NCBI GenBank assembly: GCA_016929595.1
Contig: JAFGIN010000044.1
Location: forward strand, 14,269-78,268
DNA from: Chitinispirillaceae bacterium
GTDB taxonomy: Bacteria; Fibrobacterota; Chitinivibrionia; Chitinivibrionales; Chitinispirillaceae
Direction: 5' to 3'
Length of the DNA stretch: 64,000 bases
Numbering within the stretch: the stretch's first letter is position 1; each line of letters begins with the position of its first letter. The translations under genes were made by a program, and so were the position numbers. The notes under the pieces are model-generated. The model saw only the letters and a list, made by a program, of their open reading frames with translations. It was not told where the DNA came from and searched no databases. Below, one piece after another: positions 10,319-49,694 of the stretch.

Positions 10319-10782
10319 AATTCGTAATTTTTTATACCAAAAGAAACATTAAAAAACAGTTTCATTAATATACTGCAAGCCATTTTTAAATTGTTATTAA
10401 TAATAACACCCCGGATGATAATCGAACGATCCATATACAACGGGAAAAGAGCGCAGACGAGGTTTTCTGGTACCTGAACAGTACGATTTCTTAACTGCAA
10501 TAAATTACTCATTCTGACATATAATATTGCTCTTCTCACTACAAGTTTTAACTTTTATTAATAATTCATACTCTGAATATTTCAATCATTTATCAACCGT
10601 TTCATGATTTGACATTATTAACTTTTATGGTATAATTAAGTTAGTTGGTAATCAGTTTATTAAACTGGTTTTTGGACACATTAAAATGCCTTTTATCAAC
10701 ATCATGCAAGCACCATACCATATGCTGTTAAAGTTTGTTTCAAATACAATCTGTTGTTAACATTTTTTTTCAAGGAGTATAC

Positions 10783-11040
10783 ATGGCACACTATTTCACC
10801 AGTGGTCAGGTGGCCAGGCAATTACGCGTTTCGATTTCAACGCTTAAACGATGGCTTGAAGGATCAGAAGTCAAAATTCCTGATGTCCGCAACGAAAATG
10901 GCTGGAGACTGTTTTCAGTTGAAGATCTTGAAACCCTGAAAGATTTTAAACGAAACCTTCGAAAAAACGGTAAGCGTTTCAACGATACAACATTACTTCC
11001 AGTATGTTTTGACCACTCAGAAGAAATAGTAAATGGATAG
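10783..11040 (+). CDS. Small MerR-superfamily HTH DNA-binding protein. It is the likely regulator at the head of the co-directional supercluster.
   Basis: The ATG at 10783 is preceded by AAGGAG at 10772-10777. The HTH is FTSGQVARQLRVSISTLKRWLEG, followed by the MerR-like stretch WRLFSVEDLETLKDF. Confidence 0.6.
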   Translation: MAHYFTSGQVARQLRVSISTLKRWLEGSEVKIPDVRNENGWRLFSVEDLETLKDFKRNLRKNGKRFNDTTLLPVCFDHSEEIVNG

Positions 11041-16809: not shown

Positions 16810-19781
16810 TTATGTATCGTAAACCCATTAAACTGTTTACGAAACATCTCTTTTGTATCGTAGTTTCAACGGTATTCTTTTTTCAGGGTTGTTCATTTAT
16901 AAATTCGTTACACAAACCACAGATCGCTTCGGTTCAACCATCCGAAAAACAAATCAGTGCTGATACAGCTATTCATGACAAAAAATCTCTACAGGATACT
17001 ATTGAAGTTGATTCTGCAGAGAATCATTTTTCACCAGCCGCAAAGCTAGTTATCTCTGCCTGTGAAAACTATCTTGATGTAAATAGCGAGAGTCCAAAAA
17101 TCGCAGAAGTACTGACAATAATGGCATCACTTTACTATAATGCCCGTTTTTTTCCTAAGAGCAGGGATATTTATCAGAAAATTATCGAGCTGAATCCGCA
17201 CTCAGCACAGGCGATGGACGCGATGAGAATGATCGCTCAATCATTTTACGAAGAGAAGCAATTCACCGAAGCACAGATGTGGTACCGTAAGATCAGCGAA
17301 ATTGCACCTGACGGCATCAGTAAACAGGAAGCGCTCGCAAGAATCGCAGAATCAATTTTCAAATTCGCAGAGATGCATGAAGCAGAAAACAGATATAAGG
17401 AAGCTGCAGAACAGTATGAACGTGTAGCGCTTGAATTTCCTGATTCCCGTATTGCAGATGTGGCTCTGTTCAATGCAGGACTTGCTTACGAAAAACAAAC
17501 AGAATGGACCCACGCAATACTTTCTTTCCAAAGAATCATACAGAGATACCCGTCATCAAAACTGATAGCAAAAACTCAATTCAGAACCGCACGCGCGCAG
17601 GAAAAACTCCTCCAATGGGAAGTTGCTGCCCAGACCTATCTTCGTGTTGTCGCAGGTTTTCCTGAAAATGAGCTCGCACCGGCTGCGATGTATAATGCCG
17701 GATTCTGCTTTGAAAATGGGGAAAAGTTTTCTGAAGCTGCTGCAACATTTGAAAAGATGGCCTCCCTGTTTCCTGACTCTGAAGATGCTGCAGATGTTCT
17801 TTTCAGAGCCGGTGAGATTTACGGCCGTATCAAAGACTGGGAAAGCGTCAGCCGGGTTAATAAACTTTTCACTCAACGGTTTGGCAATGATCAGGACAGG
17901 ATTATTCAGGCCCAGTGCATGATTGGTATTGCACTGTACATGCAAAACAAAACAGATGAAGCATTAAGTCAACTCGGGAAAGCGCTCTCGACCTATTCAT
18001 CATTACAGGAACCAAGTACAATGAACTCCTATTACGCAGCGAAGACCACATTTACTATAGGAGAAATATATCACGACCTGATGAAAAAAGTTACTCTTTC
18101 CGAAAACCGCTCTTCATACAAAAAATCTCTTAAACAAAAATCATCTTTACTTGACTTTGCAGTAAAGGCTTATGTCAAAACGCTGCAATTTAAAATACTT
18201 GAATGGACCACCAGAACAGTCTGTCAACTTGGTCAGTTGCATGAGGACTTCGCGACCGGAATTTTTATGCAGGAGCGAGCGCAACACCTTTCTCTTGAAG
18301 ATAGAATTTCACTTGAGCTGGGCATTGCTAACGCCGTCGAACAATACCTGGTTGAAAAATCACTTCATTATCACGAGCAAAATGTCAAACTATCGATTAA
18401 AGAAAAAATTGAAGACAAATATGTACTTCAATCCCGGCGTAAACTTACGTATTTGCCCTATTTTGCGGCAGAGAATTATCTCGCACTTGTAGAGATAATT
18501 AAAAACGTAAATAAAAGTGATAAGCAGGAAGGGTTTGCTCTGATCGCAAAAAGACTCCAGATGTACCAGAAAATTGCTCCATTTCAGGAAAAAGCTATTG
18601 ATCTTTTTCTCAAGTCCCTGGAGATGGGCTCTACCTATGCAGAACAGGATGAGTATTATAAAAAATCAACAAAGATGGTTACCGGTATAGCTTTCACTGT
18701 AGGAGAAACCTATTATGACATAGTATCAATCGCCAGAGATGCACCAGTTCCGTCAACATTTAATCAGTATGAACGATTTGTTTACAAAACAAAACTGATC
18801 AAACAGGTAGAAGATTACGAGAGTCAGGCATTAACAAACTACCTCAAAGCGCTTAAGATTTCAGAAACGTATTCTATTGGAGACGACAACATTAAAATCG
18901 CGCGTGAACGGATCGCTGAACTGCTCTTTAAACGGGCCCGTTGTTATGATCTTCTCTGTCTTTCTGCTTTTAATGCTCCTCCCTATCCACCCGGTATCAA
19001 TGCCGCTGAACAGGAGGAATACAAGTTCCGATTTGAAGAGATCGGGTTAAAATTCCAGGAGCAGGCGTTTGATATTTACCGTGAAGTTCTGGCATATGAG
19101 CAAAAGCATTACGCATCAGGAAAATATGTCACCGATGCGTATGTAAGGCTGTTTCAAAACTTCCCCGATGAAATCGGTGTCATTACTGATGAACTTGTCA
19201 GTACAGCTATAAGTTCCGGCAATCAGTGGAAATGTACATCGGATTCTGTTGCATCCTGGGCTGATTTTGAATGCAATGACTCTGCATGGATGCAGGCACA
19301 TTTCACCTCTGAGATAATGCTTGATACCAGCAATACCTTTTCTGGCTCTGTTCCATCAACCATGTGGTGGGGTGATGGTGATCCCGGTCAGACCTCACAT
19401 TACCACCCGGCAGAAAAACTATTTTTCAGAAGAACGTTCACTGTTCCGGCAATGCCACATGAATCGAAACTGATTTTCGCCGGATGTGGAATTTACACAA
19501 TCTACCTTAACGGTAACCTCATTGGATCTGACAGTTCTAAAACAACGCCGATACCTGTCAAAAATTATGATCTTATGGGCAAAGTCCGAAGCGGAAAAAA
19601 CATTATTGCAATAAAAATCAGCTCATCAGGAGAACAATATGGTATCAAACCTTTGATTTTGTACACCACCGGCGCAAAAACATCGTATCCTAAACCACCG
19701 GGATACGACAAACCGCTCTCACTGGAGGAAGTACGTTTTGACAAATATGTTTTTCCAAAAATCGCTAACTTTGAGTTTTAG
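16806..19781 (+). CDS. Large (991 aa) TPR/YbgF-like repeat protein with a C-terminal galactose-binding-like (GH2 N-terminal sugar-binding jelly-roll-like) domain.
   Basis: The ATGA start/stop overlap with the upstream TPR gene. TPR repeats such as YPSSKLIAKTQFRTARAQEKLLQWEVAAQTY. A C-terminal stretch (LFFRRTFTVPA...IYTIYLNGNLIGS) resembles the GH2 sugar-binding domain (WYRRTF...VWVNG..VG). Confidence 0.65.
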   Translation: MIMYRKPIKLFTKHLFCIVVSTVFFFQGCSFINSLHKPQIASVQPSEKQISADTAIHDKKSLQDTIEVDSAENHFSPAAKLVISACENYLDVNSESPKIAEVLTIMASLYYNARFFPKSRDIYQKIIELNPHSAQAMDAMRMIAQSFYEEKQFTEAQMWYRKISEIAPDGISKQEALARIAESIFKFAEMHEAENRYKEAAEQYERVALEFPDSRIADVALFNAGLAYEKQTEWTHAILSFQRIIQRYPSSKLIAKTQFRTARAQEKLLQWEVAAQTYLRVVAGFPENELAPAAMYNAGFCFENGEKFSEAAATFEKMASLFPDSEDAADVLFRAGEIYGRIKDWESVSRVNKLFTQRFGNDQDRIIQAQCMIGIALYMQNKTDEALSQLGKALSTYSSLQEPSTMNSYYAAKTTFTIGEIYHDLMKKVTLSENRSSYKKSLKQKSSLLDFAVKAYVKTLQFKILEWTTRTVCQLGQLHEDFATGIFMQERAQHLSLEDRISLELGIANAVEQYLVEKSLHYHEQNVKLSIKEKIEDKYVLQSRRKLTYLPYFAAENYLALVEIIKNVNKSDKQEGFALIAKRLQMYQKIAPFQEKAIDLFLKSLEMGSTYAEQDEYYKKSTKMVTGIAFTVGETYYDIVSIARDAPVPSTFNQYERFVYKTKLIKQVEDYESQALTNYLKALKISETYSIGDDNIKIARERIAELLFKRARCYDLLCLSAFNAPPYPPGINAAEQEEYKFRFEEIGLKFQEQAFDIYREVLAYEQKHYASGKYVTDAYVRLFQNFPDEIGVITDELVSTAISSGNQWKCTSDSVASWADFECNDSAWMQAHFTSEIMLDTSNTFSGSVPSTMWWGDGDPGQTSHYHPAEKLFFRRTFTVPAMPHESKLIFAGCGIYTIYLNGNLIGSDSSKTTPIPVKNYDLMGKVRSGKNIIAIKISSSGEQYGIKPLILYTTGAKTSYPKPPGYDKPLSLEEVRFDKYVFPKIANFEF

Positions 19782-19795
19782 TAAAAGGAGCTGTT

Positions 19796-20113
19796 ATGAG
19801 CATCCTATTCAATAAAGGGAACATAAGGTTCTACTGCACTGTTATTATTACCATTGTCTTATGCTTCCCGGAAACAGTTTATAGCCAGGACACAGCATCA
19901 TCAGAACAGGATGAAAAAAACCAGATATATAAAATTGAAAAACCGGGAACAATTACTTTTACCGTTGGAGTTAAAATTAAAGGAAAAGTAGAAAAACCGC
20001 AGGTAATGATATTTCTTCCAAAAGAAAAATCTATCTACAAAGAACATGAGCTCAATCGATCATTTTCCAGTGAGCTTTCGCAACCACTGGATTTTACGCC
20101 ACTTATTGAGTAA
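19796..20113 (+). CDS. Small hypothetical secreted protein.
   Basis: An AAAGGAG Shine-Dalgarno site 7 nt upstream, and a hydrophobic N-terminus. Confidence 0.45.
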   Translation: MSILFNKGNIRFYCTVIITIVLCFPETVYSQDTASSEQDEKNQIYKIEKPGTITFTVGVKIKGKVEKPQVMIFLPKEKSIYKEHELNRSFSSELSQPLDFTPLIE

Positions 20114-20228: not shown

Positions 20229-20873
20229 GTGATTTACATGTTTGAAGCTGTTGCCCGTTTCTTTCAACAGGGTGGAGTCTGGATGTATCCAATCGTAGCC
20301 GTCTCGGCATTTGCTCTGGCGGTGATATTTGAACGTCTGTTCTATTATTATTTCCATTGCAGAATAAATGCAAAAGGTTTACTTACACAAATAACCCGGT
20401 TTATCCGGGGTGGTGATCTCGAAAAAGCCCGTCAGATATGTACAAAAACAAAATCTCCATTATCAGTGATTCTGGAATGCGCAATCTGGCATTATCAACA
20501 GCAGGAGCCAGACCAGGAGATCCAGAATGCAATCGATGAAATTGCATTACGAGAACTGCCAAGGATTCAGAGAAATACACACTATTTGTCACTGTTCGCC
20601 AATATTTCTACACTCCTGGGTCTGCTCGGTACGATCTTTGGCCTTCAGGAAGCTTTTGGTGCCCTGAGCGCTGCGGATCCATCTCAAAAAGCAACTGTAC
20701 TTGCGAATGGTATTGCAATTGCCATGAATACAACAGCACTTGGATTGATTGTTGCAATTCCCTGTATGATAATGTTTTCGGTACTCGGCTCAAAATCCAA
20801 CAGTATTATTGAAGAAATCGATGAGTCATCTGTGCGTCTGCTCAACTTTTTATTTTCACAGCGACGAATGTAA
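20229..20873 (+). CDS. exbB: MotA/TolQ/ExbB proton-channel family protein.
   Basis: Three TM helices with the characteristic LGLLGTIFGLQEAF...GIAIAMNTTALGLIVAIP region, and an AGGAG Shine-Dalgarno site. Confidence 0.85.
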   Translation: MIYMFEAVARFFQQGGVWMYPIVAVSAFALAVIFERLFYYYFHCRINAKGLLTQITRFIRGGDLEKARQICTKTKSPLSVILECAIWHYQQQEPDQEIQNAIDEIALRELPRIQRNTHYLSLFANISTLLGLLGTIFGLQEAFGALSAADPSQKATVLANGIAIAMNTTALGLIVAIPCMIMFSVLGSKSNSIIEEIDESSVRLLNFLFSQRRM

Positions 20874-20890: not shown

Positions 20891-21385
20891 TTGATAACAA
20901 CCATGGCAAAAACATTTCCAGCAACTAAACGTGTCAAAAAATCCACGGGGCAATCTGTTGTACCCTTTGATCTGGACGTCACGCCTGTGATGAACCTTTT
21001 TATGGTGCTCATCCCGTTTTTAGTCTCAATGGCAGTGTTCACACATATTGCGGTTGTGGATTTTTCTCTTCCCCCTGCACAGAGTGAAAACTCTGAAGGC
21101 AGTGAAGAGACAAAAGAGCTTGATATTTCAATCGTTGTAACAGTACAGGGATTTCGTATTGTTGGAACCGGTAAAAAACTTGACTTAATAGAAAAATCAC
21201 GAGGACAATACCAGTATGAACAGTTGCGGATATTGTTGAAGGCTATTAAATTCCAGTATCCTTCACAAAAAAGTGTCGTCCTGGTACTGGAATCTGATAT
21301 TCTTTATGATGATATCATCAAATTTATGGACATCTGCCGAGAGTCCCAATTCCCGGATATTGGTCTGTCAGGAGATATCGGATGA
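20891..21385 (+). CDS. exbD: ExbD/TolR biopolymer transport protein (paralog 1).
   Basis: A single N-terminal TM (DVTPVMNLFMVLIPFLV) followed by an ExbD periplasmic domain. Confidence 0.8.
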   Translation: MITTMAKTFPATKRVKKSTGQSVVPFDLDVTPVMNLFMVLIPFLVSMAVFTHIAVVDFSLPPAQSENSEGSEETKELDISIVVTVQGFRIVGTGKKLDLIEKSRGQYQYEQLRILLKAIKFQYPSQKSVVLVLESDILYDDIIKFMDICRESQFPDIGLSGDIG

Positions 21386-21702
21386 AACTGAAAGCCAGCA
21401 CGATCAAAGGGTATCCTTCACTTGAAATATCCGGTCAGATTATTGGAGACTATGCAGCACAAGTCAAATCAAAAATCGATACCATCAGCCGTAAACACAA
21501 AGGTAACCTGGTTATCAACCTCTCAGAAGTTACCTTCATAGACAGTTATGGATTAGGTGTTTTAGTTTACATTTGGAAGTTATACAGGAGTAACTCCAGA
21601 GATATTATTTTTCTCTGCAGTGGTAATTTCGATCTGGATATATTTTCGGCAGCCAACCTCGATTCTCTGTTTACAATTATACGATCTGAGGGTGAATTAT
21701 GA
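21382..21702 (+). CDS. STAS-domain protein (SpoIIAA/anti-sigma-factor-antagonist-like) embedded between the two exbD genes.
   Basis: NLSEVTFIDSYGLGVLVYIWK matches the STAS fold signature. There are ATGA overlaps with both flanking exbD genes. Confidence 0.65.
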   Translation: MKLKASTIKGYPSLEISGQIIGDYAAQVKSKIDTISRKHKGNLVINLSEVTFIDSYGLGVLVYIWKLYRSNSRDIIFLCSGNFDLDIFSAANLDSLFTIIRSEGEL

Positions 21703-22217
21703 GCTTTCCGGCCTCGAAATCTTCATTGAAGATGGTCCGCAAAACACGCGGTAGAAAATCTATTCAAGGAATAAAGCCCCAATTGACATCACTTATTGAT
21801 GTAATGACAATTCTCCTTATTTATTTACTGAAAAGTTTTTCATCTGAGGGTGAAATCGTTACCGTTTCAAAAAATCTGATACTTCCCGAATCATCTGCAC
21901 AGAAAAGACCGGAACTTAATGTCACACTGACAGTAAACAGCTCGGTCATTATGGCAGAGGATAAAGTTGTAGCCGATGTGCAGAAAGAGCTCAATACTGA
22001 AGATCTTGTTATAAACGGCTTAAATTCATGGCTTCAGACGCGCAGGGAAGCGACAGAAAAAATTTCTCAATACTCTACTAAAACAAAATTTAAAGGTGAC
22101 ATTACTATCCAGGGGGATAAAAGAATCCGCTTCAGGCTTTTAAAAAAAATCATGTACACCTGCGGACAGCAGGGATATAACAATTTTTCACTTGCAGTCA
22201 GAAAAAAAGGGGACTGA
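21699..22217 (+). CDS. exbD: ExbD/TolR biopolymer transport protein (paralog 2).
   Basis: The N-terminal TM (LTSLIDVMTILLIYLL) plus an ExbD-like periplasmic domain. Confidence 0.8.
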   Translation: MSFPASKSSLKMVRKTRGRKSIQGIKPQLTSLIDVMTILLIYLLKSFSSEGEIVTVSKNLILPESSAQKRPELNVTLTVNSSVIMAEDKVVADVQKELNTEDLVINGLNSWLQTRREATEKISQYSTKTKFKGDITIQGDKRIRFRLLKKIMYTCGQQGYNNFSLAVRKKGD

Positions 22218-22220
22218 ACT

Positions 22221-23276
22221 TTGCGTGAAAATAGAGTCATTGTTGTATCCTCCTCCACATCAGGCACTCTGAGCAACAATATCATCAATTCGATCCGGGG
22301 TACTCCTTTTTCTTTTTTCAAGTCGCGTTTATTCCTTCCTGTACTTTTCTCACTGCTATTCCACAGTATGCTGATCTATTATGTTAACTCGATAAAAATT
22401 TCTCCTGAAGAAACTATTGTAATAGAGAATGTGTCTGAGCGTTTTGCCAGGCTTATAATCGAAAAACCACTTCCAAAAAAAGTTCCTCAGCCGACCAGAA
22501 GTGACCAGCCAGGTGAATCTGGAGAACAAAAAACAACACAGCAGACGCAAACTCAATCCCAGACAGAATCCGGCCCGATTACAACGGTACAGCGGAAAAA
22601 AGCGAAGACTAAAGTTCAAGCACAAGTAAATAAGGTAGAGCAAAAAGTGCGGACCGTAGGTGTTCTGGGAATGCTCACCGGAGTTGGCGCTACCGCAAAG
22701 GGTCCGGCAGTAGCGGATGTACTGGGTGCAATAGGCGATAAAAAAGATAATTTTAAAGATCTTGATGATGCACTCAACAAAATGACCGGGCTTAAAAAGA
22801 CGCCATCCATTGACATACTAGACAAAAAGCTGGTTAAAAGCAAAGAGGTCTCAATATCACACAAAGAAGAGATTGATGACCTGATTGCCGGCATTGGACA
22901 AGCGGAATCAGTGAATCTGTCAAAAAAAGGGAACTTTATCATCCAGAGGCCTGAAAGCATTGAAGGCGCAGCATCATCGAATGCCCGAAGAGATAACAGT
23001 GCAATAAATGAGATCGTTTCTTCCCACAAATCCAGTATCCGAATGACTTACGAAAAATTTTTAAAGCGAGATCCCACACTAGCCGGAAAAGTAACCGTAC
23101 GATTTACCATTACAGCATCAGGCTCTGTGACCAAAATCCAGATTATTGAAAACACCACTGGTAACAGTGAATTTGAAGAGGAGATTCTCAGGAAACTGAG
23201 AATGTGGAAATTTGATCCCATACCTGAAGGCGAAGTGACGGTTTCGTACCCCTTTGTTTTCTCCTCATCAGGGTAA
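22221..23276 (+). CDS. tonB: TonB-family energy transducer (N-terminal TM anchor, Pro/Gln/Lys-rich linker, TonB C-terminal domain). It probably starts at a TTG.
   Basis: The C-terminal stretch AGKVTVRFTITASGSVTKIQIIENTTGNSEFEEEILRKLRMWKFDP matches TonB_C. Confidence 0.8.
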   Translation: MRENRVIVVSSSTSGTLSNNIINSIRGTPFSFFKSRLFLPVLFSLLFHSMLIYYVNSIKISPEETIVIENVSERFARLIIEKPLPKKVPQPTRSDQPGESGEQKTTQQTQTQSQTESGPITTVQRKKAKTKVQAQVNKVEQKVRTVGVLGMLTGVGATAKGPAVADVLGAIGDKKDNFKDLDDALNKMTGLKKTPSIDILDKKLVKSKEVSISHKEEIDDLIAGIGQAESVNLSKKGNFIIQRPESIEGAASSNARRDNSAINEIVSSHKSSIRMTYEKFLKRDPTLAGKVTVRFTITASGSVTKIQIIENTTGNSEFEEEILRKLRMWKFDPIPEGEVTVSYPFVFSSSG

Positions 23277-24194: not shown

Positions 24195-26356
24195 ACCAGA
24201 TTATGACTCCTAAGCTTCGCACCAGTTCTGGTTTATACGAATATATCTCAATTGTGATCAGAAGAAGATGGATCATAATTATTTCATTTTTTAGTGTTTT
24301 TTTATCAACTCTTTACTATGTTAACCAATTAGAAGATGTTTTCGAATCCTACTCCACAATTGTTATTGAAGAACACAATACGTATGTTAACCAGATGATA
24401 AACACCCCCGTACGATCGCTGGATTTTTACGAAGGGATTCTAAACAGCCGCAGTTTTTTAAAATCGGTACTTGACAGTATCGATCTTGAAACATTCAAAC
24501 GAAATATTCCAAAAATGGATCAGGAGAACGCGTTACATTATATTAATAACAATTTTATAATGCGAAAAACAACGTACACCTCATTTCTTCAGCTCTCAGC
24601 ACACGCACCGGTTAAAGAACTTGCCTTTGCTATCGCTTCAAAGGGCACAGAAATTTTTCGCACACGATGTCAGGAAGTTGCCGGTGAAGAATCCCGGCTG
24701 GCAGTAACAGAAATAGAAAAACAGCTTGACATTGTAAGATCCAATCTTGAAAAAGCAGAACATGATTACAGAAGTTTCAGTGAAAAAAACGGGCAGATTC
24801 AGGAAGGTTCCACACCAGAGTTGAAGACTTTACAGGAAGCCTATGCCGGTGGTCTTGCGCAATCCGGACTGAAAGAAGCAGATCTTAATGCAGAAAAGAA
24901 ACTTCTTGCCAGACTTGAAACTAAAATAAATCCGGAAAGCGACAACCGTTCACCAGAATATTTAAAGCTCAGATCACGGCTTCGTGAGCTTGAGAAAGAG
25001 AAGATGCGGCTTGAAGAACTTGGGATACGGTTAAGCGGCCTTTCGACTGTTGACAGAGACATTGTAGCAGTTGAAACTGAATTGCTGAAATACAAGCAGA
25101 CATCCTTGGTCACAACTACCGATCCAGGTATGATCCGTCAATGGCAGGAACTGAGGAAATCTGTACTTGCAAAAGAAACCGAGCTTGAACTGTTCAAAAG
25201 AAAACTGGAAGCATACAAAAAAGCAATTAATACCTACAAATCAGAAAATCCGGATATACTCTCCAACTCTCTTGAGTTATTGCGTCTGGAAAGATCAAAG
25301 GAAGTCTATGAAAACATTTACTCCATGCTTCTGGAAAAACTCGAAGAGGAACGAATTAAAAGCAGATCCAGTACAGCCGGTGTCAAAATTGTCGATCTGC
25401 CTCTTATGCCATCCAACCCCATACCCAAAAATGAGCATCGTTTCTATCTTTTGGGTATACTCCTTGGTTTAATCTTAGGAGTTGGTCTCGCTTTTTTAAT
25501 TGAATTCAATGACACATCTCTCAAAAATAATGAGGACATCGAAAAATACCTTGAATTACCGGTAATGGGAACGATTCCACACATAACAATTAGTAAAAAA
25601 AACGACATAGAAATTCAACGCAAATCAGCAAAATCATCAAAACAGGTCTCCGTTACGCAATATCCTCGTTCGGTGCTTAATTTCAGTGGTGATGATTCTG
25701 TAATCGCCGAATCGTACCGGTCTTTACGCACAAATTTATCATTCGTAAGCCCTGACCATCCGCTTCGGACAATAGTGCTGACTTCAGCCGGACCATCAGA
25801 AGGTAAGTCGTTAACAATATCCAATCTCGCTGTTGCATATGCCCAGATGGGAAAAAGAACGTTACTTGTTGATTCAGATCTGCGTCGACCGGTACAGCAT
25901 CATATTTTTAATCAAAAACGAGAGCCTGGCCTTTCTGACTGTTTCATCGATAACCCTGATTTTGAACGTATTATCAAAAAAACCGAGAAAGATAACCTGT
26001 TTGTTATCACAGCGGGAACTTTTACCCCCAATCCGGCGGAGCTGATTGCATCCAACAGGATGAGTAAACTGATCGAATATTTCAAAGAAGCATTTGATGT
26101 GGTCTTTTTTGATACTCCGCCAATAGTCGCGGTAACCGATGCAACACTGCTCAGTAAAAAAATGGATGGCTTACTTCTTGTCGTACGATCTAATCATACA
26201 GACAGAATGATGGCATCCAGAGCAATAGGTAACGTCAAAAATGTGGGTGTCAATGTAATCGGCACAGTACTCAATGATATAAACCTGTCGAACAGATACA
26301 CCAGTTATGGCTACTATAAATATTACTATCATTATTATAAATCCAGGACCAGCTGA
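24191..26356 (+). CDS. wzc: Polysaccharide co-polymerase/BY-kinase (Wzc-like chain-length determinant plus tyrosine autokinase). The start is placed at an internal ATG that overlaps the wza stop (ATGA).
   Basis: Two TM segments, Walker A (TSAGPSEGKS) and Walker B (VVFFDTPP), and a C-terminal Tyr cluster (YTSYGYYKYYYHYYKS). Confidence 0.85.
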   Translation: MNQIMTPKLRTSSGLYEYISIVIRRRWIIIISFFSVFLSTLYYVNQLEDVFESYSTIVIEEHNTYVNQMINTPVRSLDFYEGILNSRSFLKSVLDSIDLETFKRNIPKMDQENALHYINNNFIMRKTTYTSFLQLSAHAPVKELAFAIASKGTEIFRTRCQEVAGEESRLAVTEIEKQLDIVRSNLEKAEHDYRSFSEKNGQIQEGSTPELKTLQEAYAGGLAQSGLKEADLNAEKKLLARLETKINPESDNRSPEYLKLRSRLRELEKEKMRLEELGIRLSGLSTVDRDIVAVETELLKYKQTSLVTTTDPGMIRQWQELRKSVLAKETELELFKRKLEAYKKAINTYKSENPDILSNSLELLRLERSKEVYENIYSMLLEKLEEERIKSRSSTAGVKIVDLPLMPSNPIPKNEHRFYLLGILLGLILGVGLAFLIEFNDTSLKNNEDIEKYLELPVMGTIPHITISKKNDIEIQRKSAKSSKQVSVTQYPRSVLNFSGDDSVIAESYRSLRTNLSFVSPDHPLRTIVLTSAGPSEGKSLTISNLAVAYAQMGKRTLLVDSDLRRPVQHHIFNQKREPGLSDCFIDNPDFERIIKKTEKDNLFVITAGTFTPNPAELIASNRMSKLIEYFKEAFDVVFFDTPPIVAVTDATLLSKKMDGLLLVVRSNHTDRMMASRAIGNVKNVGVNVIGTVLNDINLSNRYTSYGYYKYYYHYYKSRTS

Positions 26357-28161
26357 TGTCCTTTCATATAATCCCGGGAAACCTGCGTACATTTTCAGAG
26401 AACAAGCATTACAAAAAACTCTGGGGATCTGCTATATCCTCTGCTCCGTATCTTTTAAGAAAATTCATCAATTTTTTCTCATTTAAGCACAGTGGTGTTG
26501 AACGACTGATACAAAAGTGTTCAGAGAACGCCCGTATTATTGACTTCGGAGCAGGATCCTGCAGTTTCAGCAAGTATCTTGCATCCAGGCGTAACTTTAC
26601 CGTTATAGCCGTAGACTGGTCATACACCGCCTTAAAAAACGCCCATTTGAATTTCCCGAATGCCCGGATTCTACCAGTATGTGCCGATCTTCATTATCTG
26701 CCCTTTAAAAAAAATGCATTCTCAGCATTTATCACCATTGACACATTCGGACATCTCTACAATCAGGAAATGGCATTTGATTGTCTTCTTAATACTCTGC
26801 AACCGGGAGCCTGCGGTTTCTTTCATAGTGAGTGTGCTGATTACCGGAAACGCTGGCCGGATTCCATGTTACTGCGCAGGATTGGTCATGATATTCCAGC
26901 GGAATCCGACGGTCACATCTCCTTATTTCCGGGTGCTGCTATCCTACGAGCTCTTAAATGTCGATTTACTGTGCTATCCTCTTTTTCTCCGGCAGGATAC
27001 CTCGGCTGGTTAACGGGATACCCGGAAAAATATACGGAGGCATTTGCCCGTGCCGGAGATAAACCAATGTACCGGCTGACCAGTTTAATGGCCCACATGA
27101 AAAATCATCTCATTGGCAAATTACTTCTCAGAATTATCAACTATTCAACCAATCGTATTGAACTCTTTTTAAACCTTCAGGGCGGCGGATCTTTCTTTGC
27201 CGATGTGATTAAACCGGTAGAAGAGAAAAGGATAAATAAAACATCAATCGATATAATCATCCCTACATACCGCAGAGAAGAGCAACTTAACATCCTGATC
27301 GGACATCTTCTGCCACAATGTAAAGATCATGATACAATCATTATCATTTCTCAGGATCTATCCTTAACCTTGAAACACTCTTCCAGACATATTCATGTGC
27401 TCCATAATTTTCCTCCGAACCTCCCGGATGCCCGAAACAGAGGTGCACTCAGCGGAAACGGTGATATTATTCTGTTTCTCGATGATGATACTATACCATG
27501 TGATGCTCTGCTTGAAAAGCACCGCACTGCCTATCTGGACAAAACGATTAATTGTATTGCCGGATCGATTGCTGACACGCAATTCCCGACAACGGAACAA
27601 CCATCATTTTTCGATATTCATACAGGGAAGCTTATACAAAATTTCACATTCCCCGACATTTCATTTTCAATCAGTTTTATGGGTGCACACTTTTCATTGC
27701 GTCGCAGTGTTTTCGCAGAGACTGGCCTGTTCGATACCTCGTTTACCGGCAGTGCACACTGGGAAGATATCGATTATTCTTTTCGATTACAAAAAAAAGG
27801 GTATAGGATATATTACAATCCGGAAATCAGAGTTACCCATCTGAGCACAACCAGAGGCGGCTGCCGGTCAGTTACGCAATCGGCATTCTGCTTCAATTAT
27901 TTCACCAACTCTGCATATTTCTCACTGAAGTACGCACCTGTCCGGTATTATTCATCATGGTTTACTTACTGGAAGTACCGTATTGAATTTGAAACCCGCA
28001 CACATCAGGCAACAACATTTCCTAAACACAGTATATATCTCCTCAGCGCATCATTCCTTGGGATTGCAGCAGCAGCAGTCCGTTTTATTTGCAAAGGTAA
28101 AAGAGTCGGACTTCCTGAAACAGTTATTCACCAGTGTGATCCGGGACACAGCAACCTATGA
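26356..28161 (+). CDS. Bifunctional class I SAM-methyltransferase (N-terminal) and family-2 glycosyltransferase (C-terminal).
   Basis: N-terminal IDFGAGSCSFSKYLA...VIAVDWS (Rossmann MTase motif I). C-terminal IDIIIPTYRRE...FLDDDTIP (GT2 DxD). Confidence 0.75.
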   Translation: MSFHIIPGNLRTFSENKHYKKLWGSAISSAPYLLRKFINFFSFKHSGVERLIQKCSENARIIDFGAGSCSFSKYLASRRNFTVIAVDWSYTALKNAHLNFPNARILPVCADLHYLPFKKNAFSAFITIDTFGHLYNQEMAFDCLLNTLQPGACGFFHSECADYRKRWPDSMLLRRIGHDIPAESDGHISLFPGAAILRALKCRFTVLSSFSPAGYLGWLTGYPEKYTEAFARAGDKPMYRLTSLMAHMKNHLIGKLLLRIINYSTNRIELFLNLQGGGSFFADVIKPVEEKRINKTSIDIIIPTYRREEQLNILIGHLLPQCKDHDTIIIISQDLSLTLKHSSRHIHVLHNFPPNLPDARNRGALSGNGDIILFLDDDTIPCDALLEKHRTAYLDKTINCIAGSIADTQFPTTEQPSFFDIHTGKLIQNFTFPDISFSISFMGAHFSLRRSVFAETGLFDTSFTGSAHWEDIDYSFRLQKKGYRIYYNPEIRVTHLSTTRGGCRSVTQSAFCFNYFTNSAYFSLKYAPVRYYSSWFTYWKYRIEFETRTHQATTFPKHSIYLLSASFLGIAAAAVRFICKGKRVGLPETVIHQCDPGHSNL

Positions 28162-29261
28162 ATGTTGGATGGTTGTTTCCCGATAGAGAACGATGCGGCA
28201 TTGCAATCTACTCCCGAAACTATATTTCCGCACTAAAAAAGCATTGTGACATAAAATCGGTAAATAGTGACCAATGGCCGGACAGTCCGGAGAAATTCAG
28301 CGGAGATCTTAACAGCTGCGACTTGATTCACATTCAATATGAAAACTCACTTTTTGCAATGCGTAATCGCGATTACTATACTACTCTTTTACGTACACTA
28401 AAAAAGCCACTGATCGTGTCGCTCCATGAAGTGTACCGACATTTTCCAGGTGTTTTCCCACGGGATCAGATCAGGGGTGGAATTTTTGTATCATCAATTA
28501 AAAGGTGGTATTATGATTTCAGGCACCCTCTTCAAACTGCATATAATAAACACGTTTCATCCGGCTTCGGAGCATCAGTGCTGCTTGTCCATCACCACGC
28601 TCATAAAGAGATACTAGAGAAAAGGATACCACACAGCTGCCCGATACTCGTTTTACCACATCCGGTATTGAAAGTGAAACACATTGGTTTGGCCAATCGT
28701 TCACAAAAAGGATCTATTATGCTGGGTTCAACTGGTTTTATAAATCCGGAATTTGATTATCTTTTATTATTTGAGACACTTCAAAAATTAAATTGTGAGT
28801 GGAAGTTCTTATGGATCGGAGGGATTAGAATCCCGGAGCACCTGAAATTACTCGATAGTATTAACCAGGAGGTCAATAAAAGACACTGGAAAGATAAATT
28901 TATCATCACCGGCTGGGTCTCAGAAGAAACTCAGAATGACCTCCTTCAAAGCATTGATATCTATTGTGCATTTTTTAAAAACCGAAGCTCATCGGGCAGT
29001 CTGGCACGGGCGATAGGAGCATACCGGTTTATCATTGCCACAGAGTCTCATATTGTTCATGAAATAAACGTCTCCCGGAAAAACAACGTAATCACAGTGG
29101 TCAATGCAGACAGTAATCAGATTGCAGAAAAAATTGATTTCCTTTCAATTGATAAGACCTCACTTATGCAGCTTCAAACCCTGGATGATTATACTACCAC
29201 CTTTAATTTCGATACGATGGCCCTAACATTGATTAAATTGTATAAAAGCATCACACTGTAA
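28158..29261 (+). CDS. Putative glycosyltransferase (GT-B, group 1-like).
   Basis: ATGA coupling to the upstream gene, a weak GT-B C-terminal domain pattern, and operon context. Confidence 0.45.
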   Translation: MNVGWLFPDRERCGIAIYSRNYISALKKHCDIKSVNSDQWPDSPEKFSGDLNSCDLIHIQYENSLFAMRNRDYYTTLLRTLKKPLIVSLHEVYRHFPGVFPRDQIRGGIFVSSIKRWYYDFRHPLQTAYNKHVSSGFGASVLLVHHHAHKEILEKRIPHSCPILVLPHPVLKVKHIGLANRSQKGSIMLGSTGFINPEFDYLLLFETLQKLNCEWKFLWIGGIRIPEHLKLLDSINQEVNKRHWKDKFIITGWVSEETQNDLLQSIDIYCAFFKNRSSSGSLARAIGAYRFIIATESHIVHEINVSRKNNVITVVNADSNQIAEKIDFLSIDKTSLMQLQTLDDYTTTFNFDTMALTLIKLYKSITL

Positions 29262-29416
29262 GATAACACTAATTATTTTTGGAATAATTGCACGACCTCT
29301 GCTCATACTTTTATGTTTCGGACTGAGCGGCTCTACGTTGAAAAACCGTCTCTCCAGACAGTTGAATAGTGATCCGTTTCGGACTTTTCTAAAAACTTTC
29401 TCTCAGAACCAGCTCT

Positions 29417-30496
29417 ATGAAGAAAAAGAAGCGACTATTGTGGGATTTCCGTTTATATTCGACCACTTATGCAAAAAGGGGTGTTGGTACTTATTGTACT
29501 GCTCTTTGCAAACAATTATTTCCGCTACTCGAAGATTTCGACATCTATATCTGGGGCAACGTTAATAATGCACCAGAATTTCTCAGAAATGCACCGGTAC
29601 ACTGGATACCATATGATTCAACCTCATGGAAGAAGGATCTTTTCAGAATTCCCCTTCTGATTTACCGATTTAAGATCAGTATTTTTCATTACTGGATACA
29701 TCTGGGCCCCCTGGACAAATGTGGAACCGGCCTTTTCCACCCCTGCAGAACGATTGCGACAGTGTATGATCTTGGTGTTGAGTTGTGGGATCTGCCCCAT
29801 TCAAATATGATCAGGAAAAGGAAATTCTGGACTATTCAGAAAATTCTTTCAAAATCAATCAATACAATATGCGCTATTTCTTCTCACACAAAGAACGATT
29901 ACATTAAGCTGTTTTCACGAAAAGAGACATCTATTCAGATCATATATATGCCGCACGACCAGCCCCATTTCTATAAAAGAAATCTCGTTTCCCCCTATTT
30001 CCTGTTCCTTCGTGGCAGTGAACATAAAAATGAGAAGAATATTGTTGCTGCATTTCTTAAATTTCATGAAAAACACCCCTCTTACTCACTGATCCTGCTA
30101 GGTGAGAACGCAAGTGCTCATGATACTTCATTTTATACAAAGGAAAAGAACATTATCACCGAGCCATCCATGGATTATTATCATGATTATCTCTGTCATG
30201 CAACGGCTCTTCTTTTCTGTTCGTTTCAGGAAGGGTTCGGCATACCTCCGATTGAGGGAATGGCTGAAGGGTGTCCGCTGATAGTCTCCGATATTCCCCC
30301 TCTTCGGGAGACATGCGAAGACTCTGCGTTGTTTGTCGACCCGAATAATATTTGTCAAATTGAAGAAGCTATGATTGCATCAATTGAAAATAATACAAGC
30401 TGGTCGAAGAGATCATTTTCTGCAGGAAAAAGGTATCGCAGTAATTCATCAGAAAGTGCCCCGCATCTTTTGCAATGTTATAAGATGCTGACATAA
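29417..30496 (+). CDS. Glycosyltransferase family 1 (GT4-like).
   Basis: EGFGIPPIEGMAEGCPLIVSDIPPLRE matches the GT1 EX7E region. Confidence 0.8.
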   Translation: MKKKKRLLWDFRLYSTTYAKRGVGTYCTALCKQLFPLLEDFDIYIWGNVNNAPEFLRNAPVHWIPYDSTSWKKDLFRIPLLIYRFKISIFHYWIHLGPLDKCGTGLFHPCRTIATVYDLGVELWDLPHSNMIRKRKFWTIQKILSKSINTICAISSHTKNDYIKLFSRKETSIQIIYMPHDQPHFYKRNLVSPYFLFLRGSEHKNEKNIVAAFLKFHEKHPSYSLILLGENASAHDTSFYTKEKNIITEPSMDYYHDYLCHATALLFCSFQEGFGIPPIEGMAEGCPLIVSDIPPLRETCEDSALFVDPNNICQIEEAMIASIENNTSWSKRSFSAGKRYRSNSSESAPHLLQCYKMLT

Positions 30497-32229
30497 TGGA
30501 ACTGATATCAATTGTCATTCCAACTCATAACCGTTCGGCACAATTGGCTGCTTGTATTAATTCAATACTTTCGCAAGAAAACGCTCCTCCACCTCTGATT
30601 ATTGTTGTTGATGACGGTTCAATTGAAGTGCACGCCCGCTCTAACAGTGAATATTGTAAAAAAAATAATCTCATCTATATCTTTCTGCCGCAGTCAGTGG
30701 GTCTGGCAGCGGCAAGAAACCGCGGTATAGAAAGCTCAGACTCACATTGGATTGTATTTCTTGATGATAATGTCATTGTCGGGCAATCGTGGTTCCAACG
30801 AATTTCTGTACTACTTTCCACCTGCCCATCATCTCTGGCTGCAGTGGAAGTAAGAGTTGAACCATCCGATCAGATGAAGAACCTTTCAGGCGAAACATTT
30901 TTATCCTGCCACTTTGCTTGCCGGCGGGATCTACTGCTTGTTGAAAAGGGGTTTGACGAGCATTTCAAAGATCCCCATTGTATAGATCATGAACTTGCAG
31001 CTCGTCTGCTCGGTCATGGAGAGATCTTTTTTGCTGATGATATACATGTCACTCAACAGCAACGATCGTTTAGTCGCCTTAAATACCTTTTCTCAATCCG
31101 CAAAAAAATAAATATAGAGCTCCAGTCTGAATTTCGATTCTTCTCAAGGCACCCTGACCGTTATCATGCATTCAGAAAAAAAAGAACATTTCCGGGTACC
31201 GTTATATCACGTTGCTTATTCCCTATGATCCTTGAGCTCAGACGCAGGCCATTAAAACAAATAACTGAAAATATTCCCGATTGTATCCTGTTATGTATCA
31301 CAATCCTGTTCGAGCAGGTTTTTACCGTTTTCTGGGCAGCAAAACACCTATCACTTTTTTTCAACCCTCTCAGATCTTTTTTACACAATTATATTGAAGG
31401 CGACAGGACTCTGGCACTCTGGAAGATTACGGGTTCAGATCTGAAACCATTTACAATGAAAAGATGTTATATAAATGCAGCCACATTCCCGTTTTTTCGC
31501 CGTCCTGTTTACAATGCATACCATACACATAAAAAAATATCTTCAGGATCTCAACACAATGCATGTCAGATATTTGTTCGTATCGATGATCTTTTTTTTG
31601 ATGATACGGCAGCGATTGAACTCTTTTCAACCGTCATAAAAAAATTAAATATATCAGTAATGACAGCTGTTCGGGGAAATGATATTCTTAATGAAGAATA
31701 CCATCCTCTGCTTGAGAGACTTAAAGACTCGGGAATTTTTATTGGAATACATGGGTTTGTTCATGAAGGGACCTTTGGACCATTTGACAGTGAACTACTA
31801 CAAATGAAATACGGATCATTTGAAGCACAGATCTGTCTGGTTATCAGAACTCTGCATATATGGAAGCAAAAACATTCCATTCTTGTTCCGCCATTTAACG
31901 CTATCAACAGTTTGCAGATTGTACGCTGGTCAAAACTCTGCAGCATCATTTGCGGAGGCCCGGAAACAGCCCGATTTACCGGACAGGTGTATGGACCTGT
32001 TGCATTATCAGATGGAGGCTGGTATTTTCCTTCAGTACATCCGTTTTACGGAAATGCAGATGTCATGTTAAAAAATGGTGTTCCATCCATGATCGAAAAT
32101 CTCAAAGGTCCACTCTGTTTAACGATGCATTTTACGCAGGAAAGAAAAGATGGTTTTCGTTCCTTTACAAACCTGCTTGAGTGTATGCATCCACAAATTC
32201 ACTGTTGGGAAAAAACTAAAAACTGGTGA
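30496..32229 (+). CDS. Family-2 glycosyltransferase fused to a C-terminal polysaccharide-deacetylase-like (DUF2334-type) domain.
   Basis: N-terminal ISIVIPTHNRSAQLAACINSIL...VVDDGS. The C-terminal region (RIDDLFF...GIHGFVHE) resembles predicted deacetylase folds. Confidence 0.6.
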   Translation: MELISIVIPTHNRSAQLAACINSILSQENAPPPLIIVVDDGSIEVHARSNSEYCKKNNLIYIFLPQSVGLAAARNRGIESSDSHWIVFLDDNVIVGQSWFQRISVLLSTCPSSLAAVEVRVEPSDQMKNLSGETFLSCHFACRRDLLLVEKGFDEHFKDPHCIDHELAARLLGHGEIFFADDIHVTQQQRSFSRLKYLFSIRKKINIELQSEFRFFSRHPDRYHAFRKKRTFPGTVISRCLFPMILELRRRPLKQITENIPDCILLCITILFEQVFTVFWAAKHLSLFFNPLRSFLHNYIEGDRTLALWKITGSDLKPFTMKRCYINAATFPFFRRPVYNAYHTHKKISSGSQHNACQIFVRIDDLFFDDTAAIELFSTVIKKLNISVMTAVRGNDILNEEYHPLLERLKDSGIFIGIHGFVHEGTFGPFDSELLQMKYGSFEAQICLVIRTLHIWKQKHSILVPPFNAINSLQIVRWSKLCSIICGGPETARFTGQVYGPVALSDGGWYFPSVHPFYGNADVMLKNGVPSMIENLKGPLCLTMHFTQERKDGFRSFTNLLECMHPQIHCWEKTKNW

Positions 32230-32239
32230 GGTGCGTTGT

Positions 32240-33319
32240 ATGAAAATCTGGTTTGCAGCAGCAATTCCTCCCGATGCCAATGGCGGAGTCGCGCGTTCTG
32301 TCTGTGAACTGTCGACCAATCTCCGTAAGCGGGGTCATAAGGTTAAAGTTATTTTCGCAAACCATACATTAACCGAAAATTACATCCTGTTCTCTTTAAA
32401 AAATGCTATCATTCTCCTGTTTCATCTGTTTTCACCACCACAATGGGTGATCGCACGTTCTACCGATGGATTTTTTGCACTGGTTCTGGCACGATTACTG
32501 AGAATGAAAGTCCGTTTCGCCCTTCATAACCATGGATGGGAACAGAAGGTCTACGAACTGGAATCGACATTGCCGCGTGCAAAAGTTTCGAATCCAACAA
32601 CCTATAAAGCACATCTGCTGCGTTTTCCGCTTCTGCGTATCAATGCAATGCTTGCCGATGTCTGCATAAGCGGTACATTTGATGAAACACGCTGGCTGAA
32701 AAAACGGTCATTTACAAAGAAAGCTTCACTCGTTACTGTACCAAACGGCATACACCCGACAGAAAAAGCCTTCTGGCCACATCAAAAAGTAATTCCACCT
32801 TTTTTTCTGACAGTCGGGGCTTTTACTTGGAAGAAAAACCTCGAGTATGCCATAGGACTGTTTACAGAAATTTACAACGCATTTCCAGCCGCGCGAATGT
32901 TTTGTGTCGGAACAGATTCCTCCCACGATTCAATACAGATAACATCAAATGCAGTTCATGCTATCACTTTTATCAATAAAGAAACTCCGGAGAGAATTTT
33001 CCGCTGGTATGAAGAGTGCCCGTTTCTGCTTTCAACATCACGGTACGAGGGGGGCAGATCATTTGCAATTCTCGAAGCCCAGAGCCGTGGTATGATCGCA
33101 TGCTCCGTAAATATTCCATCATCAGGAGAGCAGATATGTCATAATCATTCAGGACTGCTTCTCGATGGCATCTCAATCGAATCTGATGCCAAAGTTGTTG
33201 TTGACTGCTTATCAGATGAAAATCTGATGCGCACAATTGGATTAAACGCATGGAAAAAAGCTCTTCGATGCAGATGGGATCGTCAGGTCGGGAGACTTGA
33301 GAGAGTTTTGAATACGTAA
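32240..33319 (+). CDS. Glycosyltransferase family 1 (GT4-like).
   Basis: STSRYEGGRSFAILEAQSRGMIACSVNIPSSGEQI. The start is placed at ATG 32240, just after the upstream stop. Confidence 0.75.
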   Translation: MKIWFAAAIPPDANGGVARSVCELSTNLRKRGHKVKVIFANHTLTENYILFSLKNAIILLFHLFSPPQWVIARSTDGFFALVLARLLRMKVRFALHNHGWEQKVYELESTLPRAKVSNPTTYKAHLLRFPLLRINAMLADVCISGTFDETRWLKKRSFTKKASLVTVPNGIHPTEKAFWPHQKVIPPFFLTVGAFTWKKNLEYAIGLFTEIYNAFPAARMFCVGTDSSHDSIQITSNAVHAITFINKETPERIFRWYEECPFLLSTSRYEGGRSFAILEAQSRGMIACSVNIPSSGEQICHNHSGLLLDGISIESDAKVVVDCLSDENLMRTIGLNAWKKALRCRWDRQVGRLERVLNT

Positions 33320-49658: not shown

Positions 49659-49694
49659 TCCAGACCGCTCTTACTTAACTTAAGGGACATACTT

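Follow-up and report, generated by a model that had tools for sequence, protein, structure and literature searches.

A phosphorylatable-class STAS gene between the two ExbD genes of an Agl/Glt-like stator operon in uncultured Chitinispirillia

The STAS gene and its junctions

In Gram-negative bacteria, energy from the inner membrane reaches the outer envelope mainly through stators of the Ton, Tol, Agl and Mot kinds. This report deals with a small gene found inside an operon for such a machine, in a 64,000-nucleotide stretch (referred to here as the window) of contig JAFGIN010000044.1 from Chitinispirillaceae bacterium (assembly GCA_016929595.1), a family placed in Fibrobacterota, class Chitinispirillia. 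The gene encodes a protein of 106 amino acids (aa) with a single STAS domain and lies between the genes for two ExbD/TolR paralogues, ExbD1 and ExbD2, which follow an ExbB-like channel gene and precede a TonB-like gene, all on the same strand (Table 1). Each part is of a known kind; what is new is the combination, in which an Agl/Glt-type machine encoded in a polysaccharide locus has a STAS gene placed between its two stator genes for ExbD/TolR. What kind of STAS protein is it, and what is it doing in a motor operon?

An earlier reading made from the sequence only had claimed a 106-aa STAS gene joined to both neighbours by 4-nt ATGA overlaps, and both points are borne out. The Pfam STAS profile (PF01740) matches with 52.3 bits against a cutoff of 22.6 (E = 5.2e-14), with residues 8-105 lying on profile positions 7-105 of 106, and STAS_2 matches the same open reading frame (ORF) at E = 0.0025. 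At the upstream junction the stop TGA of ExbD1 (21383-21385) overlaps the STAS ATG (21382-21384) within 'ggATGAaa' (21380-21387), the shared 4 nt being 21382-21385; downstream, the STAS stop TGA (21700-21702) overlaps the ExbD2 ATG (21699-21701) within 'ttATGAgc' (21697-21704), the shared 4 nt being 21699-21702. Shine-Dalgarno-like motifs (AGGAG and GAGG) lie 7-10 nt 5' of the STAS and ExbD2 starts. Overlaps of 4 nt join at least nine same-strand gene pairs of the window and are its usual junction style, so the STAS gene is not singled out by its overlaps alone.

Is the ORF real? The identical protein is found on two further assemblies and as one NCBI protein from a metagenome-assembled genome (MAG) labelled Chitinispirillaceae bacterium. 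Word-index searches, which reach only down to 59% identity (plus one protein, P0011), return orthologues 59-93% identical to the window protein, and at 59% or more there are ten 90%-identity clusters. The ratio of nonsynonymous to synonymous substitution rates (dN/dS) is 0.18 between the window and locus L008 (dS 0.36) and 0.03 between L004 and L007, the latter at a dS of 2.8, near saturation. The ORF is thus under purifying selection, and with its kept orthologues, these ratios and the confident structural model described below it is not a chance reading frame.

The class of the STAS protein

STAS-only proteins differ in what they do, and the sequence-only reading had named partner-switching modules and the MlaB type of transporter subunit as their normal roles. 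Both are known, but so are targets in polysaccharide and motility pathways that are not sigma factors (SypA, HmpV and All4160). To which class does the present protein belong? AlphaFold2, given a 47-sequence alignment of the STAS subfamily, returns a model with a pLDDT of 90.9, a pTM of 0.84 and the expected STAS topology (element order E-E-H-E-H-E-H-E). Searching PDB sequences with the subfamily profile finds TM1442 (1.7e-20), SpoIIAA (2.8e-16) and RsbV (5.8e-12), and no MlaB at E ≤ 1e-3. Foldseek, with TM-scores normalised to the query, gives the same three at the top (TM-score 0.77-0.85, probability 1.00), the SpoIIAA and RsbV chains coming from complexes with SpoIIAB and RsbW, respectively; the top SpoIIAA chains score 0.81-0.82 and TM1442 0.85, whereas MlaB scores only 0.58-0.64. 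The protein narrowly misses the cutoff of the anti-sigma factor antagonist model TIGR00377 (ant_ant_sig; 49.5 bits against 53.45, E = 3.2e-13), and it falls far under that of the mlaB equivalog NF033618 (14.7 bits against 90, E = 0.031). The operon encodes no ABC ATPase partner.

The residues tell the same story. D54, S55, G18 and G59 are invariant across the 47 subfamily sequences, and FIDS55YGLG of the window protein lines up with FMDSSGLG in SpoIIAA and with YMDSAGLG in TM1442. The serine of the DSSGLG motif is Ser58 of Bacillus subtilis SpoIIAA, the residue that is phosphorylated. A Trp-Lys/Arg pair after helix 2 (W65-K66) is typical of this STAS subfamily. On sequence and predicted fold, then, this is a canonical STAS protein with one domain, of the potentially phosphorylatable SpoIIAA/RsbV/TM1442 class and not of the MlaB class; an MlaB-like role, one of those named beforehand, is disfavoured on both counts.

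The surrounding operon

Table 1. Features of the STAS-containing locus, in window coordinates.
Feature	Coordinates	Strand	Length	Evidence and remarks
Candidate operon head	10609..11040	+		Sigma-70 consensus promoter 10609-10636; MerR-like ORF 10735-11040, MerR_1 E=7e-9
Giant TPR protein 1	13330-16809	+	1159 aa	TPR Pfam and YbgF/CpoB-like matches; GltC/D/E-like position
Giant TPR protein 2	16806-19781	+	991 aa	TPR Pfam and YbgF/CpoB-like matches; GltC/D/E-like position
Small protein	19796..20113	+	105 aa	N-terminal hydrophobic signal-like segment; no Pfam match
MotA/TolQ/ExbB-family proton channel (AglR-like)	20238..20873 (alternative start 20229)	+	211 aa	Pfam MotA_ExbB E=9e-27
ExbD/TolR paralogue 1, ExbD1 (AglQ/S-like)	20903..21385	+	160 aa from ATG 20903 (164 aa from TTG 20891)	Pfam ExbD E=7e-12; transmembrane Asp in LDVTP
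STAS-only protein	21382..21702	+	106 aa	ATG start; SpoIIAA/RsbV-class fold; putative phospho-acceptor Ser55 in FIDS(Y/N/H)GLG motif
ExbD/TolR paralogue 2, ExbD2	21699..22217	+	172 aa	Pfam ExbD E=7e-14; transmembrane Asp in LIDVMT
TonB-like/GltG-like transducer	22221..23276	+	351 aa	TonB_C E=2e-9
Wza-type polysaccharide export protein	23301-24194	+		Poly_export and SLBB domains
Wzc-type chain-length determinant/tyrosine autokinase	24191-26356	+		TIGR01007 200 bits; GNVR and AAA_31 domains
Methyltransferase-glycosyltransferase fusion and four more glycosyltransferases (rest of polysaccharide locus)	26356..33319	+		Pfam

The row had been described from the sequence as an exbB-exbD-exbD-tonB operon. 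The gene row stands and the Pfam labels fit, but it is not an ordinary TonB iron-uptake system. The ExbB, ExbD and TonB equivalog models score far under their cutoffs (exbB 52.7 against 206, ExbD 27.5 against 216), no TonB-dependent receptor is found among the window ORFs scanned, and the row, which has an Agl/Glt-type order, lies in a Wza/Wzc locus. Among solved chains the channel protein is nearest to TolQ (4e-10) and then to ExbB (1e-8). ExbD1 and ExbD2 both match Pfam ExbD and both carry the transmembrane Asp, but BLASTP between them gives E = 2, that is, no detectable pairwise similarity, which points to an ancient duplication, as for AglQ/AglS. The TonB-like protein has a short cytoplasmic tail, one transmembrane segment, a Pro/Lys/Gln-rich linker and a C-terminal TonB_C domain of the AgmX/PglI type, where NF033768 (myxo_SS_tail, AgmX/PglI) matches with 95.3 bits against a cutoff of 40; Pfam finds no FHA domain in it. 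The GltG equivalog matches at the C-terminus only (96.5 bits against 650, E = 1.4e-27), so this is not a full-length GltG equivalent. Orthologues of the stator proteins are 73-97% (ExbB), 65-94% (ExbD1) and 61-98% (ExbD2) identical to those of the window. Every relative also has the 105-aa small protein, at 39-90% identity, in its place after the TPR genes and before ExbB, and the giant TPR genes too keep their synteny.

Luciano et al. 2011 (PMC3169522) described an Agl/Glt 'core complex', of unknown function, from Fibrobacter succinogenes, Geobacter and members of the gamma- and betaproteobacteria. By gene content, order and domains, and not from a phylogeny, the present operon matches a core complex of this type, set within a Wza/Wzc/glycosyltransferase polysaccharide locus. 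Could the STAS gene have a counterpart in the published complexes? In Table S3 of PMC3169522, Methylibium Mpe_A1228-1230 (aglR, aglQ, aglS) are contiguous, and Fisuc_1894, 1896 and 1897 are listed with one unlisted gene between them, presumably the second ExbD; these layouts leave no room for a STAS gene beside two ExbD genes. The giant TPR proteins were compared with Fisuc_1892/1893. The idea that the 'additional gene' of the published core complex is the STAS gene was rejected, as the locus-tag gap (Mpe_A1227) follows the TPR genes and precedes aglR, the place that the 105-aa protein takes here.

Where would transcription begin? A candidate promoter matches the sigma-70 consensus at 12 of 12 positions (TTGACA, 16 nt, TATAAT, with the extended -10 TG) and lies about 100 nt 5' of a 101-aa MerR-family ORF. 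That ORF is the first of the whole plus-strand cluster, which continues with unknown proteins, the TPR proteins, the motor, Wza/Wzc and the glycosyltransferases. Judged from the letters, the locus may be transcribed from this promoter and regulated by the MerR-family protein. Directly 5' of the TPR genes are two overlapping plus-strand ORFs of 369 and 400 aa (11033-13307), also present upstream in locus L001, for which no Pfam or NCBIfam match is found.

Distribution and evolution

How old is the STAS insertion, and how widely is it shared? A hidden Markov model (HMM) search for STAS over 1.84 billion representatives returns 12,631 proteins at E ≤ 1e-3, among which a group of about 45 clusters, 106-112 aa long, is set apart by E-values of 1e-25 to 1e-15. 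Two borderline members of the subfamily stand alone, with no Exb or kinase genes nearby: P0150 (L099 5313-5762), of 149 aa, has a variant DSQWIG motif and a C-terminal tail and adjoins a DUF218 gene, and P0186 (L096 2656-2979) is an isolated STAS gene. The 45 or so clusters thus set a ceiling on the number of STAS proteins embedded in the operon and do not count them. Four further clusters have a longest contig of the same length as that of ExbD1 hits, which indirectly supports a place in the operon for these four. Searching genome contigs with the single STAS protein gave only one unrelated Solirubrobacteraceae STAS protein at 29% identity, and searching metagenome contigs with the STAS alignment gave 80 generic STAS loci at 24-42% identity, none of them with relatives of ExbB, ExbD or TonB by tblastn.

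Since STAS diverges rapidly, relatives were searched with the flanking ExbD1 instead. The ExbD1 profile finds 1037 clusters; none of the 120 best falls below 70% identity, and those of them that are named carry Chitinispirillaceae, Chitinivibrionales or 'Fibrobacter sp.' MAG labels. In the window clade the STAS gene occupies the ExbD1/ExbD2 slot with 4-nt overlaps on both sides, and a 108-aa STAS protein is encoded in the same slot, again with 4-nt overlaps on both sides, in L089, L091, L092, L093, L094 and L095. The exception is L090 (Chitinivibrionales MAG GCA_014728215.1), where STAS is absent and ExbD1 runs straight into ExbD2 via ATGA (...GGATGAGTTTTCC...); otherwise L090 has the same TPR-TPR-small-ExbB-ExbD-ExbD-TonB-Wza-Wzc row and keeps the glycosyltransferases. 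The slot is thus occupied in seven of the eight sampled lineages of Chitinispirillia. Absence of the ORF from close relatives that conserve the exb genes had been named beforehand as a sign of a spurious frame; with this degree of conservation the gene passes that check in spite of its loss in L090. The arrangement of a STAS gene within a stator operon is so far confined to uncultured Chitinispirillia.

The junction sequences offer a hint as to how the gene came or went. In the 108-aa lineages the STAS ORF starts ATGAGTTT(T/C)AA and ExbD2 starts ATGAGTTTTCC, so that the ATGAGTTT shared by the two starts brackets the STAS ORF as an 8-9 bp direct repeat (L091 7534/7857, L092 7525/7848, L093 7471/7794). 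L090 has a single copy (7495-7515). This difference is consistent with the footprint of a precise insertion or deletion. Which of the two was it? In a neighbour-joining tree on ExbB, ExbD1, ExbD2 and the TonB-like protein (849 columns, no outgroup), L090 pairs with the STAS-bearing L093 in 281 of 300 bootstraps, and the midpoint root on the longest path does not fall on the L090 branch. From these sequences the absence in L090 is most likely a secondary loss, with one gain and one clean loss as the simplest history, and the best explanation is that STAS was inserted between the two ExbD/TolR genes in the ancestor of the sampled Chitinispirillia. A clean loss marks STAS as an accessory part and not a core subunit, which makes an obligatory assembly subunit, an option raised by the sequence-only reading, unlikely. 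In this one lineage the cytoplasmic parts of the machine (ExbB loop, ExbD tails, TonB tail) show no convincing difference linked to the absence of STAS.

At the more distant loci, identity to the window proteins is 76-81% for ExbB, 71-82% for ExbD1 and 70-74% for ExbD2, 51-59% for Wza, 46-55% for the TonB-like protein and 30-40% for STAS.

Other features of the window

Three further groups of genes were noted in the window. A 437-aa protein (4482-5798, minus strand) fuses an N-terminal EIIA-2 domain of the phosphotransferase system (PTS) to a C-terminal DisA-type diadenylate cyclase (DAC) domain, which suggests control of c-di-AMP synthesis by PTS phosphorylation. A P-type ATPase gene is followed by genes for three consecutive SPFH/Band-7 proteins (650, 192 and 414 aa), with 4-nt overlaps, at 45835-51843 (plus strand). 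A 195-aa cohesin-domain protein (42923-43510, minus strand) and a CarboxypepD_reg/SpaA-like protein (41288-42259, plus strand) are encoded next to a DUF4423 gene, and these two proteins may be cell-surface or cellulosome-like components.

Possible functions of the STAS protein

The literature offers little guidance. As the sequence-only reading had supposed, no role of a STAS protein in Ton/Tol motors seems to be on record: no paper was found that links STAS with ExbB/ExbD/TonB or TolQ/TolR motors, co-mentions being coincidental, and a review of STAS-only proteins makes no mention of either. Precedents lie elsewhere. SypA, a STAS protein of the Vibrio fischeri syp polysaccharide locus, acts on an unknown non-transcriptional target (PMC4517449, PMC8256260), and the Anabaena STAS protein All4160 is reported to regulate an exopolysaccharide (EPS) biosynthetic enzyme directly (bioRxiv 10.64898/2026.04.08.717354).

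Our preferred reading, which we put forward tentatively and hold to be possible but short of probable, is that the STAS protein is a phosphoserine-controlled cytoplasmic regulator of motor and polysaccharide output, comparable to SypA or HmpV. It is suggested by the strict ExbD1/ExbD2 slot under purifying selection, the phosphorylatable class of the protein, its dispensability in L090 and the precedents of SypA, HmpV and All4160; that Ser55 is phosphorylated, what STAS binds and in which direction it exerts control are inferences. How might such a regulator work? STAS, produced alongside the stator subunits, would serve as an accessory regulatory output protein outside the core of the motor. 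When unphosphorylated it would bind the cytoplasmic face of the machine, where the candidate docking sites are the cytoplasmic domain of ExbB, the basic tails at the N-termini of ExbD1 and ExbD2, and the TonB-like protein's tail. An RsbW-type kinase encoded elsewhere would phosphorylate Ser55 and a PP2C phosphatase would remove the phosphate, releasing or engaging STAS, and motor activity or assembly, hence polysaccharide deposition, would track a cellular signal. Homologues of GltG in Myxococcales carry an FHA domain, which indicates that Ser/Thr-phosphate signalling feeds this machine class elsewhere.

Several observations weigh against such a regulator. The 4-nt overlap is the default junction of the window and ExbD1 and ExbD2 are joined by ATGA even where STAS is missing, so the coupling may come from the insertion site and not from selection for stoichiometry. 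Of the proteins in the row, STAS evolves fastest (30-41% identity to the window protein, against 61-83% for the stator proteins ExbB, ExbD1 and ExbD2), which is unexpected for a partner that docks on the very conserved cytoplasmic domain of ExbB. Close paralogues, P0150 and P0186, exist outside any Exb context. A conserved Ser/Thr at the position of Ser55 is found also in MlaB, a STAS protein that is not known to be phosphorylated. Finally, in canonical partner-switching modules the kinase and phosphatase genes are usually adjacent to the STAS gene, and the RsbW-like kinase or PP2C partner that the sequence-only reading had proposed to look for did not turn up: the 64-kb window (ORFs of at least 150 aa plus scanned gap ORFs) contains no HATPase_c (RsbW-type) kinase and no SpoIIE/PP2C phosphatase. 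If Ser55 is phosphorylated, the enzymes must be unlinked.

A more specific form of the regulator, which we consider rather unlikely, is that a serine-phosphorylation partner switch acts directly on a stator of the MotA/ExbB/TolQ family, STAS being a reversible clutch or assembly factor on the AglRQS-like ExbB-ExbD1-ExbD2 complex. If this were true, envelope force transduction and surface polysaccharide transport would be switched on and off by what would be the first STAS-regulated ion-driven motor, and there would be a functional handle on the Agl/Glt core complex outside Myxococcales.

But is the motor the target at all? The protein might instead be a SypA-like regulator of the polysaccharide pathway, acting in its unphosphorylated form on Wzc, a glycosyltransferase or another downstream step, with the ExbD slot only securing co-expression. 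STAS lies 1.6 kb 5' of Wza/Wzc and the five glycosyltransferase genes, on the same strand and with no convincing terminator found between; SypA, with its non-transcriptional target, itself comes from a polysaccharide locus, All4160 reportedly acts on an EPS enzyme, and STAS evolves at a rate close to that of Wza (51-60% identity) and the TonB-like protein (43-57%) and not at that of the stator. We regard this as a minority view, however, as in every operon copy examined STAS has ExbD1 and ExbD2 as its immediate neighbours, never Wza, Wzc or the glycosyltransferases, no kinase or phosphatase is linked to it, whereas the syp locus has SypE, and L090 has Wza, Wzc and the glycosyltransferases without STAS.

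A classical anti-anti-sigma factor is what the closest solved relatives would suggest. Here STAS would sequester an unlinked kinase of the RsbW/SpoIIAB type and free a sigma factor, and its expression from the motor operon would be a feedback on the building of the envelope machine. SpoIIAA, RsbV and TM1442 are nearest by both sequence and fold, several of them in complex with kinases, the phospho-acceptor serine is invariant and TIGR00377 matches at a low E-value. That match, though, is under the cutoff, the window holds no anti-sigma kinase, sigma factor or PP2C, and the long retention of the gene inside a membrane-motor operon is left unexplained, all of which makes this model distinctly doubtful.

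Could STAS simply be a structural part? An MlaB-like constitutive subunit, stabilising the cytoplasmic side of an ExbB5-ExbD2 complex without phospho-control, would fit the translational coupling between stator genes, and MlaB, which is among the fold matches, is a precedent for a STAS-only integral accessory subunit of a membrane transporter. We find it very unlikely given the poor mlaB scores in sequence and fold set out above, the precise absence of STAS in L090, the gene orders of the published core complexes, proteobacterial and Fibrobacter, which offer it no place even though the stators are 70-80% identical, and an evolution much faster than that of the stator. That STAS is an unrelated passenger, a duplicated stand-alone gene that landed at an ATGA junction and persists because excision is rare, would suit the close stand-alone paralogues, the direct repeat ATGAGTTT flanking the ORF in the 108-aa lineages and the clean absence in L090, but is most improbable in the face of purifying selection on an ORF that is intact, with an invariant DSxGLG motif, in every copy despite divergence to 30% identity and is kept in seven of eight lineages.

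What would a phosphorylation-controlled regulator in this place mean? The presence of a phosphorylatable STAS protein in a stator operon, kept up throughout one class of the Fibrobacterota, points to a concrete and testable input for control of the machine. Outside Myxococcales, the locus also connects polysaccharide export of the Wza/Wzc type with an Agl/Glt core complex, in keeping with a role of such machines in moving surface polymers. Should STAS target the polysaccharide enzymes, the theme of SypA, HmpV and All4160 would extend to a new phylum. What we offer is a hypothesis built on gene context in uncultured organisms.

Comparison with known systems

The protein itself is most like SpoIIAA, RsbV and TM1442, which are its best PDB sequence matches and with which it shares size, fold and the DSxGLG phospho-acceptor motif. 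It differs from them in gene context, as it is encoded inside a membrane-motor operon with no adjacent anti-sigma kinase, phosphatase or sigma factor, in scoring just below the TIGR00377 cutoff and in the W65-K66 pair typical of its subfamily. MlaB of the MlaFEDB ABC transporter offers a likeness of another sort, being a STAS-only accessory cytoplasmic subunit of an envelope transport machine encoded in the operon of that machine. MlaB, however, binds an ABC ATPase, of which there is none here, it matches weakly in sequence and fold, and the present STAS has been lost in one relative.

In setting, the nearest are SypA, HmpV (from the hmp locus of Nostoc) and All4160, each a single STAS domain with a conserved Ser that belongs to, or acts on, a locus for polysaccharide or motility. 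Their output is thought to be a target other than a sigma factor and the unphosphorylated form is the active one. Unlike the present STAS, they have an identified kinase or phosphatase, often encoded nearby (SypE; HmpU/HmpW; HenR and Alr3423), and none of them lies among stator genes of the ExbB/ExbD type; the likeness to SypA drawn here is one of domain make-up and setting.

For the operon as a whole the relevant comparison is the Agl/Glt core complex (aglR-aglQ-aglS with gltC/D/E/G). It agrees with the window operon in gene content and in gene order, from large TPR proteins through a small extra gene, a TolQ/ExbB-like channel and two ExbD/TolR proteins, both with the transmembrane Asp, to a TonB-like protein, which here too has an AgmX/PglI (GltG/GltJ) C-terminal domain. 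There are two differences. No described core complex has a gene between its two ExbD/TolR genes, and the Myxococcales homologues of GltG are annotated FHA/TonB (comparison with Table S3 of PMC3169522), whereas the TonB-like protein of the window is without an FHA domain. In Myxococcus the Agl motor and Nfs move the spore-coat polymer exported by Wza/Wzc, and Agl-Nfs is functionally linked to Exo during sporulation (PMC3858216). In the window the motor genes adjoin the Wza/Wzc pathway itself, and the Myxococcus example makes this physical linkage meaningful.

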